This document shows, piece after piece, positions 1,561 through 54,527 of a stretch of DNA of 64,000 nt. This DNA comes from a virus, in IMG/VR virus record IMGVR_UViG_3300032222_000151, positions 1-64,000 of that record, one strand, 5' to 3'. The translations under genes were made by a program, and so were the position numbers. The notes under the pieces are model-generated. The model was not told where the DNA came from. It saw nothing but the letters and a program-made list of their open reading frames with translations, and ran no database searches. The number at the start of each line of letters is the position of its first letter. Within the stretch, counting starts at the first letter, position 1.

Positions 1561-1775
1561 TGTGGACTAAGTATAACTATCTCTGTACTGACTGTGATGC
1601 AATGATTGAGATTACTACTCAGGCTTATCCTGTTATTGATCCCGCTTGTACTTGCCGTGCCTCATCTCACATAATTTTCCTGGGGGTTGAAGATGGATAT
1701 GACCCTGATGAACCTGTGACTAGTATCACATACACAGAAGTTGTAAAAATCAACACGAACCCGTATAATTTATAG
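1560..1775 (+). CDS. hypothetical zinc-ribbon protein
   Basis: CxxC...CxC; translationally coupled. Confidence 0.65.
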   Translation: MWTKYNYLCTDCDAMIEITTQAYPVIDPACTCRASSHIIFLGVEDGYDPDEPVTSITYTEVVKINTNPYNL

Positions 1776-2909: not shown

Positions 2910-3236
2910 ATGCAAGGAATAGTAATTGAAGGCTTAGAATTAGTAGGCACATTTGGAGTAGACTCAGGACAGGCTATGGTTGGCGACCCATGCTATCTTG
3001 ACCAATGGAAAACAAATGTAGGCGAGGATTGGAACCTAGAAGGCAAGGTGGGAGAATACTCCTATCAAGGCGCTAGTGCTACCACAATTGATGATGTTGC
3101 TGGCACACTAGGCGGAGGACTTGCCGTAGTGTTTAGCACAGGCTATGGCGATGGTGCCTATCCTGTTTATGCTCAGTTCAATGAGGACGGACGAGTAGCA
3201 AAGATCGTTATCGATTTCATGGGAGATGACGAATAA
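2910..3236 (+). CDS. DUF4241-like protein
   Basis: VDSGQ...DPCY and FSTGYGDGAYPVY motifs. Confidence 0.7.
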   Translation: MQGIVIEGLELVGTFGVDSGQAMVGDPCYLDQWKTNVGEDWNLEGKVGEYSYQGASATTIDDVAGTLGGGLAVVFSTGYGDGAYPVYAQFNEDGRVAKIVIDFMGDDE

Positions 3237-3382
3237 TGGCAGAATTTAAAGTAGAGGTCATCTTTGAGCCCACTGGTGACTACATGACATTTAGATATGA
3301 AGCAGAGGCAGAAGATGAAGAAGCGCTGCTCAATGAAGTACTAAGTCAACTATCAATCGTATCTTTTAAGGAGCAAGAATAA
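3236..3382 (+). CDS. hypothetical protein (48 aa)
   Basis: MAEFKVEVIFEPTGDYM...; TAATG coupling at both ends. Confidence 0.65.
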   Translation: MAEFKVEVIFEPTGDYMTFRYEAEAEDEEALLNEVLSQLSIVSFKEQE

Positions 3383-3747
3383 TGGGAGCACGGATTAACT
3401 TTGTATTTAAGGATGTTGAAGATGAGGCACATGTAGTCCTCTATAGCCACTGGGGTGAGACCGAATGGCAGCGGGACCTAGCAATGGCCATAAACCATGC
3501 TAAGCCTAGATGGAGCGATGTTGCCTATTTCACCCGCATGGTGATTAGTTATCTTACTCAGGATGATGTCCTTGGTGAGTTAGGGTTTGGTATTTATGCT
3601 ATTACTGGTACCAACTTTGAATTAGGCGAGACCACTGTGGTCATCGATATTGAAAAAGAAACTATCTATGAGGCAGGCAAGGACCTACAGGTCGACTGGC
3701 AGTTATTTATTAATGCATACCTACCAAGTTTAGTTGAGACAGTCTAG
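3382..3747 (+). CDS. conserved phage hypothetical protein
   Basis: MGARINF...LYSHWG motif; AAGGAG SD. Confidence 0.7.
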   Translation: MGARINFVFKDVEDEAHVVLYSHWGETEWQRDLAMAINHAKPRWSDVAYFTRMVISYLTQDDVLGELGFGIYAITGTNFELGETTVVIDIEKETIYEAGKDLQVDWQLFINAYLPSLVETV

Positions 3748-3774
3748 GTATTGGGTCACCTAGATTAATAGGGT

Positions 3775-3815
3775 GGAAGGGGCAGGCGTGGGGCTTGCTC
3801 TTTCCCCCACTTTTT
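3775..3815 (+). terminator. Long GC-rich hairpin, probable intrinsic terminator
   Basis: GGAAGGGGCAGGC/GCTTGCTCTTTCC stem followed by TTTTT. A second hairpin AGTCTAGGT/ACCTAGATT lies just upstream. Confidence 0.5.
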
Positions 3816-3840
3816 GATACAATAGATACAAGGGAGAACT

Positions 3841-4044
3841 ATGCGTATAAGCAAACGAAAAACTGATGAAGAAAGAGTTGCTGACAAACTTGGCAACATG
3901 GTTTCTGACCTCAGAGTTGATTTGGAATTGGTGGGGGAATACTTAGCAAACTCTCAACCTTTTGTCGTGTATAATCGCTTACAAGTAATTGCTGAGTCAG
4001 CCAAAGAAACTAAGGAAGGGACAAACTATGCCAACAAGTTTTGA
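3841..4044 (+). CDS. hypothetical protein
   Basis: AGGGAG SD; 67 aa ORF. Confidence 0.7.
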   Translation: MRISKRKTDEERVADKLGNMVSDLRVDLELVGEYLANSQPFVVYNRLQVIAESAKETKEGTNYANKF

Positions 4045-4282
4045 TAACAAAGCATTGATCCTGGGACAACTATGGATTAACTATAAAGCCGAAGATGAGT
4101 GGATTGATTTCTTTATCTATAACGATTTAGGTTTGCCGCTTGCCTTTGCATATGCTGAGGGTATTGTAAATCATACTACAACTCTTGAGCAGTATATCAA
4201 TGAGACCTGGGATCTATTCCTTGAAGGTTTGGATGCTGTTGATGAAGGGTTTGAAAGTATTGAGGATCTCCTAGACGACTAG
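4028..4282 (+). CDS. hypothetical protein
   Basis: Start at MPTSFDNK; NDLGLPLA motif. Confidence 0.7.
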   Translation: MPTSFDNKALILGQLWINYKAEDEWIDFFIYNDLGLPLAFAYAEGIVNHTTTLEQYINETWDLFLEGLDAVDEGFESIEDLLDD

Positions 4283-4462
4283 CCTGGGCCCGAAAGGGCA
4301 CGTGCCATACTTTTATCAAATTGTCAAACCATAAAATCTTCAAACCAAGACATTACGAACCTCCAAAACCTTCCCCCTCCAGAAGATTACGATCCAAACC
4401 TTATATCCCCAAACCTTATACCATAGATATAAAGGTTTGTCAAACCATGTTATAATGATTAT

Positions 4463-4693
4463 ATGCCAAGAGATCACTTTGCTCAACTATCTAGACAAAC
4501 CTCACATAGACATGACCAACCTCATGATATAGTAACCTTTAATAAAGATATAAGTACTATATGTGGTATGTTGTATTCTATAGTTACTCTTAAGGCTTTC
4601 TTTCCTAAGTCCCCCGCCCCAGAAATGACTAACAATCCTGTTAAGGACGCTGCAAGCGGGGACTCAAAGTATACCCAATTACCCCTATGGTAA
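4463..4693 (+). CDS. hypothetical protein
   Basis: TGtTATAAT-6 nt-ATG leaderless geometry; no recognisable motif. Confidence 0.45.
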   Translation: MPRDHFAQLSRQTSHRHDQPHDIVTFNKDISTICGMLYSIVTLKAFFPKSPAPEMTNNPVKDAASGDSKYTQLPLW

Positions 4694-4808
4694 ATAACAA
4701 ACCATTTATCCTGGTTTTCTAAATATTTCATATAAGTTTATTTAAATAACATTACGATTATCGACAATTTCTCCCTGGTTTTGGGAGATTTTTTTGCATG
4801 AAATGGGC

Positions 4809-4837
4809 TTGACAAACCATACAAGATAGGCTATAAT
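4809..4837 (+). promoter_or_regulatory. Consensus promoter facing the putative origin
   Basis: TTGACA-17 nt-TATAAT; no substantial ORF downstream. Confidence 0.7.
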
Positions 4838-4860
4838 GCCCAAACCATGCATATGAAGGT

Positions 4861-4889
4861 TTGACAGATATGAAGGTTTGTGATACAAT
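4861..4889 (+). promoter_or_regulatory. Second tandem promoter facing the putative origin
   Basis: TTGACA-17 nt-TACAAT with TG extension. Confidence 0.65.
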
Positions 4890-5002
4890 CTGCGCTATCT
4901 GAATTTGGGGATATAAAGGTTTGAGGTTTGGTATTACGAACGCCCCTTATAAAAGCGCTCCCTACTCCACTATCCTCCACTTCACTCCACTTCTAAAGTG
5001 TC

Positions 5003-5049
5003 TAATAATATTATCAGTAAGATTAATCTGTGGATAAACCTGTGGATAA
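5003..5049 (+). promoter_or_regulatory. DnaA-trio array plus tandem DnaA boxes (oriC basal unwinding system-like)
   Basis: TAA TAA TAT TAT CAG TAA GAT TAA (eight NAN trios, 5003-5026), TC, TGTGGATAA (5029-5037), ACC, TGTGGATAA (5041-5049). Confidence 0.7.
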
Positions 5050-5114
5050 CTCTATCAAAACCTCACAAACCAGACATTACGAACCTAACAATATATCTCC
5101 CAAACCTAACAACC

Positions 5115-5123
5115 TGTGGATAA
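5115..5123 (-). promoter_or_regulatory. DnaA box (perfect TTATCCACA)
   Basis: TGTGGATAA on the + strand, same orientation as the two boxes upstream. Confidence 0.65.
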
Positions 5124-5657
5124 CTAAACCACTCTAGGGTCAATCCACCAATCCTCAAATGGATATAGTGGGGAGTTGCATGTAACATTTTCTCTAACTA
5201 ACTCATATCCCAAACCAGATAATAACTCTTTCTGCCTATTCTTGATATCAAGGTTTGACGCACAGTAGTATAAATCATGTTCAAATGTGATAACAGAAAA
5301 CCTGTATTTTTCCAGGGGTAAAGCAAGTAATGCCTTAAGTGAGTTCTCTGCTGGCTCGATGTCTACTTGAAGGTAATCTATCTGCTTAGGCATATCGAGC
5401 ATATAGAACAAGGTCTCATAGTCAAATGTTGTGGCATCTGCCGTATAGCACTTATTAAACCTATTGGCGTTAAACTCATTGGCCCTATCAGGATCTATCT
5501 CAAATGAGACTCCTGTCCAACCATACTCCTTCTCTAGCATATATGTATTACTTATGTCTTTAGAGTGGTATGCTCCTATTTCTACATATACCCCGCTATT
5601 TTTGCCTTTAAGGGTATCTATTACGAACTGATCTTGACCTGCTTGACTGTATCCCAT
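5124..5657 (-). CDS. FkbM-like SAM-dependent methyltransferase
   Basis: YSQAGQD, YVEIGA, SNTY, IDYLQVDIE, ITFEHD, EDWW motifs; leaderless TATACT-6 nt-ATG. Confidence 0.8.
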   Translation of the reverse strand: MGYSQAGQDQFVIDTLKGKNSGVYVEIGAYHSKDISNTYMLEKEYGWTGVSFEIDPDRANEFNANRFNKCYTADATTFDYETLFYMLDMPKQIDYLQVDIEPAENSLKALLALPLEKYRFSVITFEHDLYYCASNLDIKNRQKELLSGLGYELVRENVTCNSPLYPFEDWWIDPRVV

Positions 5658-5686
5658 ATACTAAGTATACCTGATATACTTAAACC

Positions 5687-5818
5687 ATGGAGCCTTTAGG
5701 ATATACACAATCTATGTTAAATGTACTATGCTTTGACTGTGGCGCTATGTATCAAGTGCCCTATGGGACATCTACCCCTACTATGGTTTGTCCTAAATGT
5801 ATTACGAACCCTTCTTGA
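5687..5818 (+). CDS. small zinc-ribbon protein (43 aa)
   Basis: CFDCG...CPKC; TGaTATACT-6 nt-ATG. Confidence 0.6.
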   Translation: MEPLGYTQSMLNVLCFDCGAMYQVPYGTSTPTMVCPKCITNPS

Positions 5819-5849
5819 CATTCCCCGCCAAACCTGAGATAATGGTTTG

Positions 5850-6296
5850 ATGTATGCTAACTGTGGAACCTATGCTGGCTATCGTAAACATCATAATCAC
5901 AAGACTAAACCATGCCTTGAGTGTTTATCTGCAGCAAGTCTATACAACAGGTTGAGATATCAGAAAAACAATCGTGCTCATATAACAGCCAAGTATCGTG
6001 CTTCAAACCTTGATAAGGTAAGAGAGCGAGAGCGATCCAAGAATAGAAGACGCAGAGCAAACATTACGAACCCTTATAATGAATCCCAGGTCATCGCCTC
6101 TTATGGTGATATATGCTACTTATGTGGATTAGGCATTGATCTTCTGGCTCCCCGAAAATGTGGGATAGATGGTTGGGAGAATGGTTTGCACATAGACCAT
6201 GTTTTGCCTATATCTAAAGGTGGGGCTGATGCTTTAGAAAATGTTAGGCCTACGCATGGTTTGTGCAATCTAAAGAAATACGCAAATGTAGGATAG
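5850..6296 (+). CDS. HNH endonuclease
   Basis: CYLC, HIDHVLPISKGG, NVRPTHGLCN. Promoter TTGACA(5815)-17-GATAAT lies 6 nt before the ATG. Confidence 0.9.
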   Translation: MYANCGTYAGYRKHHNHKTKPCLECLSAASLYNRLRYQKNNRAHITAKYRASNLDKVRERERSKNRRRRANITNPYNESQVIASYGDICYLCGLGIDLLAPRKCGIDGWENGLHIDHVLPISKGGADALENVRPTHGLCNLKKYANVG

Positions 6297-6397
6297 TAAC
6301 CACTAGTGCCCGCTTAGGGCATAGGAAGGTTTGTTAACTCTATTTTGCGCCGAACTTTAAAACAAAGAACATAACTGATGTATGATACAATAAAATT

Positions 6398-6973
6398 ATG
6401 CCGAACGAATTTGACACCATATACGAAAACAATAGATGGGGTTATAAAAGCGGACCTGGATCAGACCCAGATCAGGCAAAAGTCTGGATAGATATGGTCA
6501 ACTCATTTCTAGAAAAAGAAGATGTTAAAACAGTCATGGATATTGGTTGTGGCGACTGGAGACTAGGACAAAAGTACAAACTAGACAACAAAACCTATAC
6601 TGGAATCGATATTAGTTCTGTTATTCTAGATGAAACAATGGCCTATAGCACAGATAATGTTAAGTTTATACATGGAGACTTTGAGTTTCTTGATGTTGAT
6701 CCAGTGGACTTAATAATCATAAAGGATGTCCTTCAGCATTTACCCAACTCAAAGGTAATCAATATTGTAAATAAGATTAAAAATCATGCAAGATATGCTT
6801 TATTTTGCGATATGTATATAAAGGTTAATGATAGAGAGTTAAACAGCGATATACCTATGGGAAGAGCCAGGCCTATAGATCTTTCAGAAGATCCATTCTT
6901 TTTTGACTTTGAAAAAATAGACAGATACAATGGAAAACAAATATCTTTATACAGGGAGAAAAGTTTTGAGTGA
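6398..6973 (+). CDS. class I SAM-dependent methyltransferase
   Basis: SGPGS, MDIGCGD, GIDIS, KDVLQHL motifs. Confidence 0.85.
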   Translation: MPNEFDTIYENNRWGYKSGPGSDPDQAKVWIDMVNSFLEKEDVKTVMDIGCGDWRLGQKYKLDNKTYTGIDISSVILDETMAYSTDNVKFIHGDFEFLDVDPVDLIIIKDVLQHLPNSKVINIVNKIKNHARYALFCDMYIKVNDRELNSDIPMGRARPIDLSEDPFFFDFEKIDRYNGKQISLYREKSFE

Positions 6974-7775
6974 AAACACAAAGATTCCTAAAATAATATG
7001 GCAAACACATAATTATGAGCATTCTGATCTTCCAGATCATTTAAAAAAAATATCACAAACATGGAAAAATCTTAATCCTGGTTGGGAATATAGATATGTT
7101 AGCCATACTGAAAGAGAAGACATAATCAAAAAATATCCTATATTGTGGAAGTACTACCCTACTCAGGATGGTGTTTGCCAAGCAGATATCTGGAGATATG
7201 TGGTTACCTATGAGCATGGTGGTGTATATGCTGACATGGACTCTGTATGTACTGAACCCATTAGTTACACATTAAGCAATCTTGAGGACCATGAAATTTT
7301 TGTCTCTACCCCAATTACATCGGATGCACCTATTCAAGAAAAAATAGACATGATGAGATCAAATAATTTTGATGAAGATCATATAAGATTTCGCATAAAA
7401 GTTCAGACAAACAGAAATGGTGTAGAGGTTTATGAATCAGAAAATGGCACAATGATTAGATCCTCAACCACAAAAAGTTCTAACTATGCTGTCAAGAAAA
7501 AATCTAAGATAATGGAGCAGGTTATAAAAGAATCTGAAGATCATTTCATAAAAAGCATCAGCAAAGATATCCCTAGAGTTATGCTATATGTTCCATTTCT
7601 CAATGTAATTCATGGATTGGACAAGGATCCCTTAGTTTCCTTTGAGTTTAATGGATTTTATCATGACGATCTATATAAAACAGGCTTTGATTCAGACTTT
7701 TTGGTTAATGATTACGGAAACATAATAAAATATACTGATTATTTAAAGAAGCACAATCTGCCAATTGCTACATAA
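6966..7775 (+). CDS. DXD glycosyltransferase (GT32/Och1-like)
   Basis: IPKIIWQT, ADIWRY, GGVYADMD. Start is uncertain (TTG 6966 or ATG 6930). Confidence 0.85.
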   Translation: MSENTKIPKIIWQTHNYEHSDLPDHLKKISQTWKNLNPGWEYRYVSHTEREDIIKKYPILWKYYPTQDGVCQADIWRYVVTYEHGGVYADMDSVCTEPISYTLSNLEDHEIFVSTPITSDAPIQEKIDMMRSNNFDEDHIRFRIKVQTNRNGVEVYESENGTMIRSSTTKSSNYAVKKKSKIMEQVIKESEDHFIKSISKDIPRVMLYVPFLNVIHGLDKDPLVSFEFNGFYHDDLYKTGFDSDFLVNDYGNIIKYTDYLKKHNLPIAT

Positions 7776-7803
7776 TAAAGTTGAAATGTGATATAATCTA
7801 TAT

Positions 7804-7929
7804 ATGAATAAATCTAAGTGCTTTTTTTGTGATAAGGATGCAACACATTACGATGTTGTAGTTGACCATGCCGATTATGTGGTTGCCGATGTGTGCTTAG
7901 ATCATTTATCTATGGGTCTCGTCTCTTAG
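7804..7929 (+). CDS. small Cys/His protein (41 aa)
   Basis: CFFC...CLDH; TGaTATAAT-6 nt-ATG. Confidence 0.6.
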   Translation: MNKSKCFFCDKDATHYDVVVDHADYVVADVCLDHLSMGLVS

Positions 7930-7968
7930 AGACTTGACTTTCTGACAGCATCCTGGTATTATTAATAT

Positions 7969-8175
7969 ATGATCAATATGGAAATACCTGATCCATTCCA
8001 AACCTTTGTAGCCAAGAAGTATGCTAACGCCAAGGGTTATGTTCATGACTTCTTTACTGGTGAATGGTCTTATAAGTGTTTATCTTGTAAGGAAGAATTG
8101 ATTGGTCCATCCCGCAAAATTTTGACTAAGATTAGATTGTTTCATACCCGCAATGAGTGCCTTGGAGGATACTAA
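7969..8175 (+). CDS. hypothetical zinc-finger-like protein
   Basis: CLSC...H...C; TTGACT-17-TATTAT leaderless promoter. Confidence 0.7.
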   Translation: MINMEIPDPFQTFVAKKYANAKGYVHDFFTGEWSYKCLSCKEELIGPSRKILTKIRLFHTRNECLGGY

Positions 8176-21881: not shown

Positions 21882-22481
21882 ATGGAAATAAATAAACCAT
21901 TTAATAACGAGATAATAGTTATAAATAATTTTTTATCTAAAGATGAAATTCAGTCAATATTTAATTATATTGAAAAAGAAAAGCAAATGCATAAACCTGA
22001 AGGAATATCTTCTGAATATTTTAATAATAGACTTATACAACTACCAACTGAACAGAATATTGAAACAATTTCTGAAAAAGAAGGCACAAAAGATATTGCA
22101 AAGATTTATCTATTAAATAAAAACAATATAGTCAATAAAATTAACAATATTTTAAAAGCAATATCTGAAGAAAATCTTTATTTAACTGGAATTGAAAATT
22201 TAATTTATTCTGCTGATAAGGGAATGCCAACACACTTTGATAATAGCCCAGAAAATTTAGAAACAAATACTCACTATGGATTAGTTCTTTATTTAAACGA
22301 TGATTATGATGGTGGAGAACTTTACTATCCAAAATTAGAAATTGAGTATAAACCTAAATGTGGAGACCTTGTAATTCACCCAGGAACAGAAGAATATACT
22401 CATGGTGTTAGAGATATTTACAATGGAACAAGGTACGCTATTACTATTTTTGCTTTTACAAAAAATGAGAGCAGTTTATAG
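21882..22481 (+). CDS. 2OG-Fe(II) oxygenase (P4H-like), tandem paralog
   Basis: HFD, YLNDDYDGGELYYP, GDLVIHPG, HGV, RY. Confidence 0.88.
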   Translation: MEINKPFNNEIIVINNFLSKDEIQSIFNYIEKEKQMHKPEGISSEYFNNRLIQLPTEQNIETISEKEGTKDIAKIYLLNKNNIVNKINNILKAISEENLYLTGIENLIYSADKGMPTHFDNSPENLETNTHYGLVLYLNDDYDGGELYYPKLEIEYKPKCGDLVIHPGTEEYTHGVRDIYNGTRYAITIFAFTKNESSL

Positions 22482-53984: not shown

Positions 53985-54527
53985 TTAAATAGATTCGTTC
54001 CAAATTGGAATAAACCGTCCATCTTCTGTTCTCGTATATGTAAGTATACCATCGCCCATTCTGCGTGTCAACTCTTGTTTGCTAGGCGTAATATCATTTG
54101 TAATTAACTTATCTTTTCTTGGTCTGCCCATATGATAAGAAGCAAGTATATCACGAATCTCTCTTACTTGGGATTCTGAGTAATACGACCTTACCTGAAA
54201 TCCTCTTGCACCACCCTTTTGAGAACCCGTTGGGAAAGGAATAACTCCTCGCTTCATTAAATCTGGTAGATATTTTTTATGACGATTAACTAAATCAGCA
54301 GTCTGACCTACTGTATATGCTCGTTCTCTTTTATTTTTAAACTCATTAATTAGACAACTCTCAATCTGATCTTTGGTAATATTATAAACAGACATAATTC
54401 CATTAGACTTATTGAGATGATGTATTCTAACAAGGTCTCCGTTAAGAAACCAAACCTTTTTGTTACCTGGTATTACAGGTGACTCATTGTATTTTTCGCT
54501 CTCAATTGTTCCCTTTTTAGTAACCAT
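53985..54527 (-). CDS. HTH (MerR-like) DNA-binding protein
   Basis: AYTVGQTADLVNRH...YYSESQV. Confidence 0.7.
   Translation of the reverse strand: MVTKKGTIESEKYNESPVIPGNKKVWFLNGDLVRIHHLNKSNGIMSVYNITKDQIESCLINEFKNKRERAYTVGQTADLVNRHKKYLPDLMKRGVIPFPTGSQKGGARGFQVRSYYSESQVREIRDILASYHMGRPRKDKLITNDITPSKQELTRRMGDGILTYTRTEDGRFIPIWNESI

Follow-up and report, generated by a model that had tools for sequence, protein, structure and literature searches.

Perfect DnaA-box arrays at defined places in the early region of a freshwater actinophage family and their possible role as a DnaA-gated transcription switch

A short non-coding block near 5 kb in the genome of a freshwater actinophage was found to carry a tandem pair of perfect DnaA boxes followed by a third box in the same orientation, and the arrangement was retained in nearly all related loci of sufficient length. 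The element is genuine and very probably constitutes an array bound by DnaA. Among possible ligands of the boxes, host DnaA is the leading candidate, as suggested by the exact 9-mer, the adjoining variants fitting TT(A/T)TNCACA and the presence of cellular counterparts. With regard to function, our leading reading, held tentatively and at somewhat less than an even chance, is that the three boxes, situated in the leader of the strongest early promoters of the phage, would form a transcription switch gated by DnaA. This reading and that of a DnaA-assisted replication origin are compatible and not mutually exclusive.

The window analyzed here is the stretch of 64 kb corresponding to bases 1-64000 of the IMG/VR record IMGVR_UViG_3300032222_000151, which has a total length of 118,809 bp and a GC content of approximately 37%. 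The ends of the record overlap exactly by 123 bp, indicating a circular assembly of approximately 118.7 kb. The encoded proteins include a DnaE-type polymerase, a DnaB-like helicase, a primase, a RecA/UvsX-like protein and a terminase, along with a Cas4-type exonuclease, SSB and WhiB. As the polymerase shared 54% identity with its counterpart in Streptomyces phage BillNye (Stanwilliamsviridae) and the structural and replication modules were collinear with those of BillNye, the phage was regarded as an actinophage related to the Streptomyces Stanwilliamsviridae. Identification of the host via WhiB failed, as the seven genome-bin matches were short contigs in MAGs of unrelated taxa; these WhiB-bearing contigs, of which L109 is one, are most likely mis-binned phage DNA. 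Contigs matching positions 3000-8000 were found in freshwater, river and lake metagenomes (12 studies), and the 24 sequencing runs were all used as assembled Logan contigs rather than reads. The contigs of the RNA-library run X20 covered 3167-4335 and 4714-4890 and none covered 5004-6172, a pattern uninformative on transcription as these are assembled contigs. No match was obtained when the 4-7 kb region was compared with 50,697 phage records at the nucleotide level. The genes neighboring the box module encode an HNH endonuclease, methyltransferases and a glycosyltransferase. The features of the region are as follows.

4770-4795, + strand: intrinsic-terminator-like hairpin with a T-run, closing the upstream plus-strand gene block (terminator prediction at 4770-4788; conserved in the alignment)
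4809-4837, + strand: promoter P1, TTGACA-17-TATAAT, 12/12 match, aimed at the boxes (CTTGACAA and TATAAT columns at least 90% conserved among 53 unique relatives)
4861-4889, + strand: promoter P2, TTGACA-17-TACAAT with TG, 11/12 match (sequence and alignment)
4857-4930, + strand: direct (A)AGGTTTG repeats at 4857, 4874, 4917 and 4924 (repeat inspection)
4933-4941, + strand: ATTACGAAC motif, one of nine co-oriented ATTACGA copies within 4352-7847 (16 copies genome-wide)
4965-4990, + strand: three CTCCAC repeats with an exact 10-bp spacing, which are incomplete DnaA boxes (TCCAC core) oriented toward the perfect ones (absent in relatives L041 and L044)
5003-5026, + strand: AT-rich tract of eight phased NAN trinucleotides, with -10-like hexamers at 5004-5009 and 5009-5014 and the invariant ATCAGTAAGAT at 5013-5023 (also kept by L081, L082 and L085, relatives without boxes)
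5029-5049, + strand: tandem pair of perfect DnaA boxes, TGTGGATAA-ACC-TGTGGATAA, boxes at 5029-5037 and 5041-5049 with the 3-nt spacer ACC (sequence and relatives; identical 21-mer in actinobacterial oriC and nrdR leaders)
5115-5123, + strand: third perfect DnaA box, TGTGGATAA, co-oriented with the pair (sequence and relatives)
5124-5657, - strand: accessory gene for a 177-aa protein with a weak match of FkbM-methyltransferase type, an insertion past box 3 (outside the conserved module; at most three of 80 loci align)

The tract at 5003-5026 reads TAA TAA TAT TAT CAG TAA GAT TAA and is followed by TC and then box 1, so that the eight NAN trinucleotides and the three co-oriented perfect boxes (starting at 5029, 5041 and 5115) were present as the preliminary description had given them. 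That description had also asked whether the boxes exceed chance. The window contained four perfect boxes, above the 0.87 expected, and four were reached in 2 of 100 shuffles; the related loci were enriched as well. Three of the four boxes are located within 95 bp, and the boxes with one mismatch were not enriched in the window (20 found, 23.3 expected). The whole 118.8-kb record contained nine perfect boxes and none of the reversed control pattern, and seven of the nine were intergenic, distributed over several clusters. Runs of at least eight NAN trinucleotides occurred three times on the + strand of the window, and at least seven phased NAN located 0-7 nt upstream were found for 0.24% of random + strand positions. 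With a length of approximately 28 bp, the AT-rich stretch is short, and its rank among the top 7% of 40-nt windows is unremarkable.

Related loci were chosen via the neighboring DUF932 protein, taking the best 80 of the 406 IMG/VR stretches that encode a relative of it. These 80 loci contained 419 perfect boxes in 1.34 Mb, against an expectation of approximately one per 73 kb, and five near-complete relatives had 4-13 boxes each when the reversed-pattern control gave 0-2. The boxes were concentrated in three zones and were nearly absent outside them. Zone D, 4-6 kb downstream of DUF932 and including the 5-kb module, had boxes in 61/65 loci, 195 in the forward and one in the reverse orientation. 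Zone U, 3-8 kb upstream of DUF932, had boxes in 51 of 52 loci (61 forward, 88 reverse), and zone P, the DUF932 promoter, in 23 of 80. The module in zone D, which can be written as ATCAGTAA(G/C)AT-N5-box-N2/3-box, was found in 62 of the 66 loci long enough to hold it. The 330-bp block around it forms a conservation island, as 42-51 of the 80 loci aligned over the block, compared with 14-33 over the upstream genes and at most three over the downstream gene. Box 3 was usually located 33-34 nt after box 2 (30/43 relatives); it abutted TTGACA in 7/43 relatives, with -10-like sequences after it, and in some relatives was situated between a TTGACA serving as -35 and a -10. The flanks of the boxes were biased to G at -1 (183/229), +9 (155/229) and +10 (161/229).

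Retention of the trio phase in relatives was a check set beforehand, and the phase was indeed kept. Among 53 unique sequences, positions -25, -22, -19, -16, -13, -10 and -7 were A in 44, 39, 52, 51, 52, 53 and 52, respectively, so that each of seven central A's was present in 39-53 of the 53, and the three phases of the tract contained 86%, 45% and 18% A. Position -4 was A in only 23 of the 53, and several positions flanking the central A's toggled between A and T among the relatives. The stretch ATCAGTAAGAT was invariant also at non-central positions, which goes beyond a central-A rule. The hexamer from -20 to -15 had A at its second and T at its sixth position in 52 of 53 sequences each, as in a -10 element, with a weak -35 (approximately 3/6), and the box pair is located 14 nt downstream of this conserved hexamer. 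The tract is equally readable as a putative -10 element followed by the invariant ATCAGTAAGAT. Three relatives (L081, L082 and L085) kept the promoters, the repeats and the tract with ATCAGTAAGAT, and had no boxes.

Two promoters directed toward the boxes without an ORF between had been reported for the region, and this was upheld, as P1 and P2 match the consensus at 12/12 and 11/12 positions and the box region is crossed by short ORFs only. P1 was nearly letter-identical across the aligned relatives. A 41-aa ORF at 4998-5123 was ruled out as coding because the relatives vary by a 1-nt indel between the boxes, the spacing from box 1 to box 2 being 11 nt in 31 and 12 nt in 20 of the 53 unique relatives. 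In a strain variant, a contig of run X2 that joins 5125 to 5712, the gene at 5124-5657 was missing and TATACT directly followed box 3. The 330-bp block was the most repeat-rich of the non-coding stretches inspected, with 4.4 GGTTTG repeats per module against a background of 0.29, and the other long intergenic gaps (at 90.6, 92.7, 108.7 and 51.9 kb) had no comparable repeats or boxes. The (A)AGGTTTG repeat also occurred at other sigma-70-type promoters at 4.1-6.3 kb. As GGTTTG and ATTACGA both recur at such promoters (4.1-7.9 kb), they were regarded as promoter-class motifs and not as iterons.

Boxes were also located at other early promoters. At 113.3, 114.2 and 118.5 kb there are three additional intergenic modules, each running from a terminator through CACGTG, one or two boxes and TGTGA-N6-TCACA to a promoter-like GTCAGACC, and all seven perfect CRP-type palindromes (TGTGA-N6-TCACA) of the phage are within the early region. 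At the DUF932 promoter the boxes were facultative, as 46 of 67 loci lacked any and the other 21 carried them in either orientation (10 reverse pairs, two forward pairs, eight single forward boxes and one mixed case). The variants TTTTCCACA and TTATACACA, which adjoin perfect boxes, match TT(A/T)TNCACA, the consensus quoted in a passage of bioRxiv 10.1101/866236. The box modules at early promoters look like a modular use of host transcription-factor sites.

For comparison with cellular sequences, a sample of 401 Actinomycetota genomes was searched, and six dnaA-dnaN origins and 10 single-hit loci were fetched. All of the five complete genomes checked had tandem perfect boxes just after dnaA. 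The six fetched origins read TTATCCACA, (T)ATCCACA, GGCC and (TTA)5, which on the opposite strand is (TAA)5-GGCC-TGTGGATA-TGTGGATAA. The polarity claimed for the phage module, 5'-NAN trios and then TGTGGATAA on one strand, was therefore the same in 6/6 of these origins, and it agrees with the 5' tail carrying DnaA-trios in the passages of PMC8287927 on this system. The sampled actinobacterial origins contained 12-15 perfect boxes in addition to the (TTA)5 trios. Eight of the 10 single-hit loci (L110-L117) had a tandem pair in the sense orientation at 20-31 nt in front of nrdR, pointing to use of such pairs at promoters in the host phylum; the identity of NrdR was confirmed in all three loci tested. 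The 21-mer TGTGGATAA-ACC-TGTGGATAA of the phage was found unchanged in five of the eight nrdR leaders and inside several actinobacterial origins. Since cells of the host phylum carry the exact element in both contexts, sequence alone cannot choose between an origin and a switch.

The presence of DnaE, a DnaB-like helicase, primase and SSB, on which the proposal of host DnaA recruitment had been built, was confirmed for each protein. The accompanying statement that the window encodes no initiator could be extended to the whole 118.8-kb record, in which none was recognized; a search for DnaA domain IV in the record gave no match at E up to 1. A weak Bac_DnaA match at 21948-22286 (13.8 bits) was rejected as an initiator, as PHROGs places the protein with the 2OG-Fe(II) oxygenases. 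For a conserved 180-aa protein whose gene adjoins that of the helicase, modeling was confident (pLDDT 91.6) and gave a beta-barrel and a MerR-type winged helix, with weak structural matches of MerR type (Foldseek E 0.16). The protein was dropped as a candidate binder of the boxes, since nothing ties it to them.

In the switch that we tentatively favor, DnaA would bind the tandem pair (5029-5049) and box 3 (5115) cooperatively, and the bound protein would block or dampen transcription entering the variable accessory-gene block. Blocking is proposed here because the pair is located 14 nt past the -10-like hexamer and 140-220 nt past P1 and P2. In the many relatives in which box 3 is inside the next promoter, its binding would occlude that promoter. 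As each phage copy has at least seven perfect boxes, a rising copy number, or a falling level of DnaA, could lift the block, and expression would thereby track the replication status of the host or the dosage of the phage. DnaA binding, repression and the timer logic are the parts of this scheme that we infer. The switch is supported by the boxes at other early promoters, which stand beside CRP-type sites and appear to be used like transcription-factor sites, by the pair in nrdR leaders as a host precedent, by the operator-like geometry with a -10 hexamer upstream and box 3 at promoters, and by the separability of the boxes from the rest of the module in L081, L082 and L085. Against it, P1 and P2 at 140-220 nt upstream are far for a classical operator, and the nearer -10-like hexamer with its weak -35 (approximately 3/6) is a putative promoter only. 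The conservation and repeats of the 330-bp block exceed the needs of a simple operator, and the strict orientation (195:1) together with a phased-A tract of oriC-like polarity would be expected of an unwinding module. It is also odd, if host DnaA binds, that the Streptomyces relatives keep TTATCCACA and not the high-affinity TTGTCCACA of the host. If the switch is true, the phage reads the replication-initiation state of its host to time its genes.

The main alternative is a replication origin assisted by DnaA, which we regard as possible but rather unlikely. Such an origin could work in two ways. In one resembling the basal unwinding system (BUS) of bacteria, host DnaA on the pair would extend onto the phased-A strand and open the AT-rich tract; in the other, transcripts from P1 and P2 would open the duplex and box-bound DnaA would help to load the phage DnaB-like helicase. 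Passages of PMC8287927 describe the BUS as having at least one DnaA box within two mismatches of TTATCCACA, commonly a tandem pair, and at least three NAN trios no more than 16 bp away, placed on the strand and on the side where the 5' tail is formed, with a preference for the trio 3'-GAT-5' (5'-TAG-3'), especially beside the box, and a GC-rich spacer of approximately 4 bp. The phage has two perfect boxes 3 nt apart (5029-5049) and eight trios ending 2 nt before box 1, seven of which are conserved with a 5-nt spacer in the relatives. It shares with incC of Bacillus subtilis (passages of PMC8287927 and PMC6669920) the tandem co-oriented pair, the 3-nt spacer and at least three NAN trios within 16 bp 5' of TGTGGATAA, but differs in that the putative module is not beside dnaA/dnaN and has no TAG trio, no GC-rich spacer and a short AT tract. 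The eight trios do not include 5'-TAG-3', and where the fetched origins have GGCC as spacer, the phage has TC and its relatives an AT-rich, TTAAT-like sequence. An expectation that trios and boxes are retained together, which we derived from the BUS model and which is not a published criterion, did not hold either, as the tract persists without boxes in three relatives (L081, L082 and L085). The oriC-type unwinding module put forward in the preliminary description is supported in part, by its boxes, phased trios and polarity, and is weakened by the absence of a TAG trio and a GC-rich spacer and by the persistence of the tract without boxes.

Further points in favor of an origin are the tandem layout and polarity matching 6/6 fetched origins, central A's in a phase that at least seven NAN reach by chance at 0.24% of positions, and the presence of the module in 62/66 loci with 195 forward boxes and one reverse box, on a conservation island between variable genes. 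Tandem consensus promoters point inward with no conserved ORF between, and neither a DnaA-like nor another recognized initiator is encoded in the record. All of the five Streptomyces relatives keep a box cluster in long non-coding DNA, and that of BillNye has AT-rich repeats; nevertheless, the BillNye cluster is without trios and syntenic with the 113-114 kb modules. The GC skew, proposed earlier as a check, was divided: in the co-oriented early genes it steps from approximately 0.02 (109-2 kb) to approximately 0.17 (6-16 kb), in favor of an origin, but the cumulative minimum is at 92.1 kb. The invariant ATCAGTAAGAT exceeding a central-A rule, the shortness of the AT-rich stretch and the promoter-class nature of the GGTTTG and ATTACGA repeats, which are not origin-specific iterons, also count against an origin. 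To our knowledge, DnaA is generally dispensable for large lytic phages that encode a replisome, which weighs on the same side. Taken at its fullest, the element would be a miniature chromosome-type origin in a large lytic actinophage that has its own DnaB, primase and DnaE and no initiator, where host DnaA on the pair spreads onto the phased-A strand and opens the DNA with the help of the two promoters, and the extra clusters tie early transcription to DnaA; this we consider doubtful. If real, it would be the first origin of a lytic phage known to us that follows the box-plus-trio layout of bacteria.

Clusters of DnaA boxes such as datA are known to soak up DnaA. Arrays without a function in cis might in the same manner sequester host DnaA, increasingly as phage DNA multiplies, and stop initiation at the host origin. 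The several clusters with seven intergenic perfect boxes, the 4-13 boxes per genome in relatives and the free orientation in zones U and P would suit such a sink. It leaves the strict orientation and fixed neighbors at 5 kb, the adjacency to CRP-type sites and promoters and the confinement to three short zones unexplained, and the sites are few per genome when the sampled actinobacterial origins alone have 12-15, so that we hold it to be decidedly improbable. That the 9-mer is the site of a DNA-binding protein of the phage family, resembling the DnaA box by mimicry or coincidence, is improbable. All of the five Streptomyces phages keep the TTATCCACA-type box and never TTGTCCACA in the cluster, the box flanks are biased to G at -1, +9 and +10, and the conserved 180-aa protein has a MerR-type winged helix, all of which would fit a phage protein. 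Set against these are the agreement with the universal box at 9/9 positions, the occurrence of such tandem pairs in cellular oriC regions and nrdR leaders within the host phylum, the lack of any match to DnaA domain IV in the phage (E up to 1), and a 180-aa protein that is unlinked to the motif and structurally matched only weakly. A leader or small RNA transcribed from P1/P2, with base pairing proposed between CUCCAC and the box segment GUGGA, is scarcely credible. The block is downstream of two strong promoters and a consensus fold predicts UCCAC:GUGGA pairings, but compensatory changes were found in none of 10 predicted pairs, the z-score was -1.75 with 10 of 200 shuffles folding as well, L041 and L044 lack CTCCAC yet keep the boxes, and box pairs elsewhere occur in both orientations. 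The RNA-structure reading was dropped on the absent covariation and this z-score. Searches of the region in Rfam (E up to 1) and for tRNA gave no match.

Lambda, P1 and T5-like phages are all reported to carry DnaA boxes. DnaA boxes are combined with other elements in P1 oriR, iteron plasmids, pBR322 and the lambda pR-DnaA system. The phage module resembles the P1 oriR-type origins in having DnaA boxes beside repeats, an AT-rich stretch and inward transcription, but differs from them in the lack of an adjacent or recognizable Rep gene and in repeats that are not origin-specific, occurring also at other promoters; it does not conform to an iteron-type theta origin. The primary origin of T7 and oriF/oriG of T4 are activated by transcription and consist of strong tandem promoters followed by an untranslated AT-rich stretch. 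This layout is seen in the phage module as well, which differs from them in its DnaA boxes, as we know of none in the T7 and T4 origins. In nrdR leaders of Actinomycetota, the tandem pair has the same 3-nt spacer and the same orientation to transcription and is likewise located shortly past a -10; the host pair, however, is 20-31 nt before the start of one gene, whereas the phage pair precedes a variable block and is inside a 330-bp conserved region with more repeats. The closest precedent in lytic phages appears to be the paired boxes of T5-like phages. According to passages of Davison (bioRxiv 10.1101/866236), these phages have eight DnaA boxes in pairs 3 bp apart with inverted repeats in the first-step-transfer/injection-stop region, their role being unproven. 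The likeness, as far as those passages go, extends to a lytic phage of approximately 120 kb with consensus pairs 3 bp apart in conserved non-coding early DNA by inverted repeats. The present phage nonetheless belongs to an unrelated family and has a DnaE-type polymerase and an actinobacterial host, and its boxes are distributed over several promoter modules, not as eight in one repeat structure, with no indication that they are in a terminal repeat. A T5-type FST/iss region, whose pairs are placed inside the terminal repeat of a Demerecviridae genome, did not fit: the present phage does have pairs with inverted repeats close by, but it is related to Stanwilliamsviridae, and its record has only the 123-bp assembly overlap.

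Among the matches listed in a literature search, there was no description of DnaA boxes in actinophages. The present case adds an abundant freshwater actinophage family with perfect boxes at defined places. Its cultured relatives, the Streptomyces phages BillNye, Wakanda, Blueeyedbeauty, Samisti12 and Byblos, each had one cluster of 2-4 perfect TTATCCACA-type boxes and another box approximately 250 bp past the cluster, in long non-coding DNA. TTGTCCACA, listed as the high-affinity box of S. coelicolor in Table 1 of PMC4285127, was found in none of the five clusters. The BillNye cluster is located in a 1.3-kb mostly non-coding region having a stretch of AT-rich repeats and no trios, and by synteny through a GP88-family gene (115900-116622 in the present record) corresponds to zone U and the 113-114 kb modules, not to the 5-kb module. 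As these cultured phages keep a cluster, the question of function is open to bench work. The survey also yielded two leads on the cellular side, namely the box-rich actinobacterial origins with (TTA)5 and the DnaA-box pair in the leaders of nrdR.

A non-coding cluster of TTATCCACA-type DnaA boxes, one per phage, was kept in all five cultured Streptomyces relatives, and four of the five carried an extra box approximately 250 bp beyond the cluster. The clusters were located as follows:

BillNye, 119428-119715
Wakanda, 119039-119315
Blueeyedbeauty, 123482-123745
Samisti12, 122951-122995
Byblos, 117871-118139

The TTGTCCACA form, listed as the high-affinity box of Streptomyces in Table 1 of PMC4285127, was found in none of these five clusters.

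Cellular counterparts were detected among loci from a 401-genome GTDB sample of Actinomycetota. The leaders of nrdR in L110-L117 contained perfect DnaA boxes as a tandem pair with a 3-nt spacer, preceded by a -10 element and by a palindrome that we take to be NrdR-box-like. The tandem boxes sit 20-31 nt upstream of nrdR. This arrangement points to putative control of the gene by DnaA in these lineages. The dnaA-dnaN origins of L119-L124, with a local GC content of 48-56%, each harbored 12-15 perfect copies of the TTATCCACA box, some of them in tandem arrays of three, and finished with a box followed by GGCC and (TTA)5, an end that is, judged from its sequence, the textbook box-plus-trio module.

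The early region of the phage contained all seven perfect TGTGA-N6-TCACA palindromes of CRP/GlxR type, when compared to an estimated chance expectation of about 0.1-0.2:

window 1715-1730, palindrome
whole 118,809-bp record (G000) 112187, 112295, 113471, 115695, 116751 and 118523, palindromes

Several of them directly adjoin DnaA-box pairs. These palindromes suggest that the early promoters are wired to a host factor of the cAMP-receptor type. No 9-mer was more strongly over-represented in the early regions than GGCGTGTCG, found 137 times against 1.6 expected under an order-4 model, in the related loci L009-L088 and at 113379 and 114398 of G000. It was positioned upstream of a promoter-like motif containing GTCAGACC.

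The following genes flank the boxes:

window 5124-5657, minus strand, 177-aa gene with a weak FkbM-methyltransferase-like match
window 5847-6296, HNH endonuclease whose N-terminus matches WhiB-like regulator families (PHROGs, E 1.7e-06)

The 177-aa gene was a strain-level indel. A DNA contig of sequencing run X2 joined 5125 to 5712 with 12 other letters in between. At most three of the 80 related loci aligned across 5124-5657.

The cumulative GC-skew minimum was located at position 92,101 of G000. Over 92-100 kb the genes lie on the minus strand, yet the plus strand is G-rich.

The following gene lay a short way upstream of the one for the DnaB-like helicase:

window 53985-54527, minus strand, conserved 180-aa protein (phrog_9440)

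Its BillNye homologue is a stretch inside a gene whose annotation reads 'helix-turn-helix DNA binding domain protein', and the AF2 model (pLDDT 91.6) showed an N-terminal beta-barrel and a MerR/BldC-type winged helix. The protein is a candidate for an origin-binding protein or a loader of the phage.

Contigs from this phage family (L094-L100) had been binned into MAGs that carry the labels Acidimicrobiaceae, Polynucleobacter, Saccharibacteria, Bifidobacterium, Arenimonas and Chitinophaga, likely reflecting binning contamination of public MAGs.
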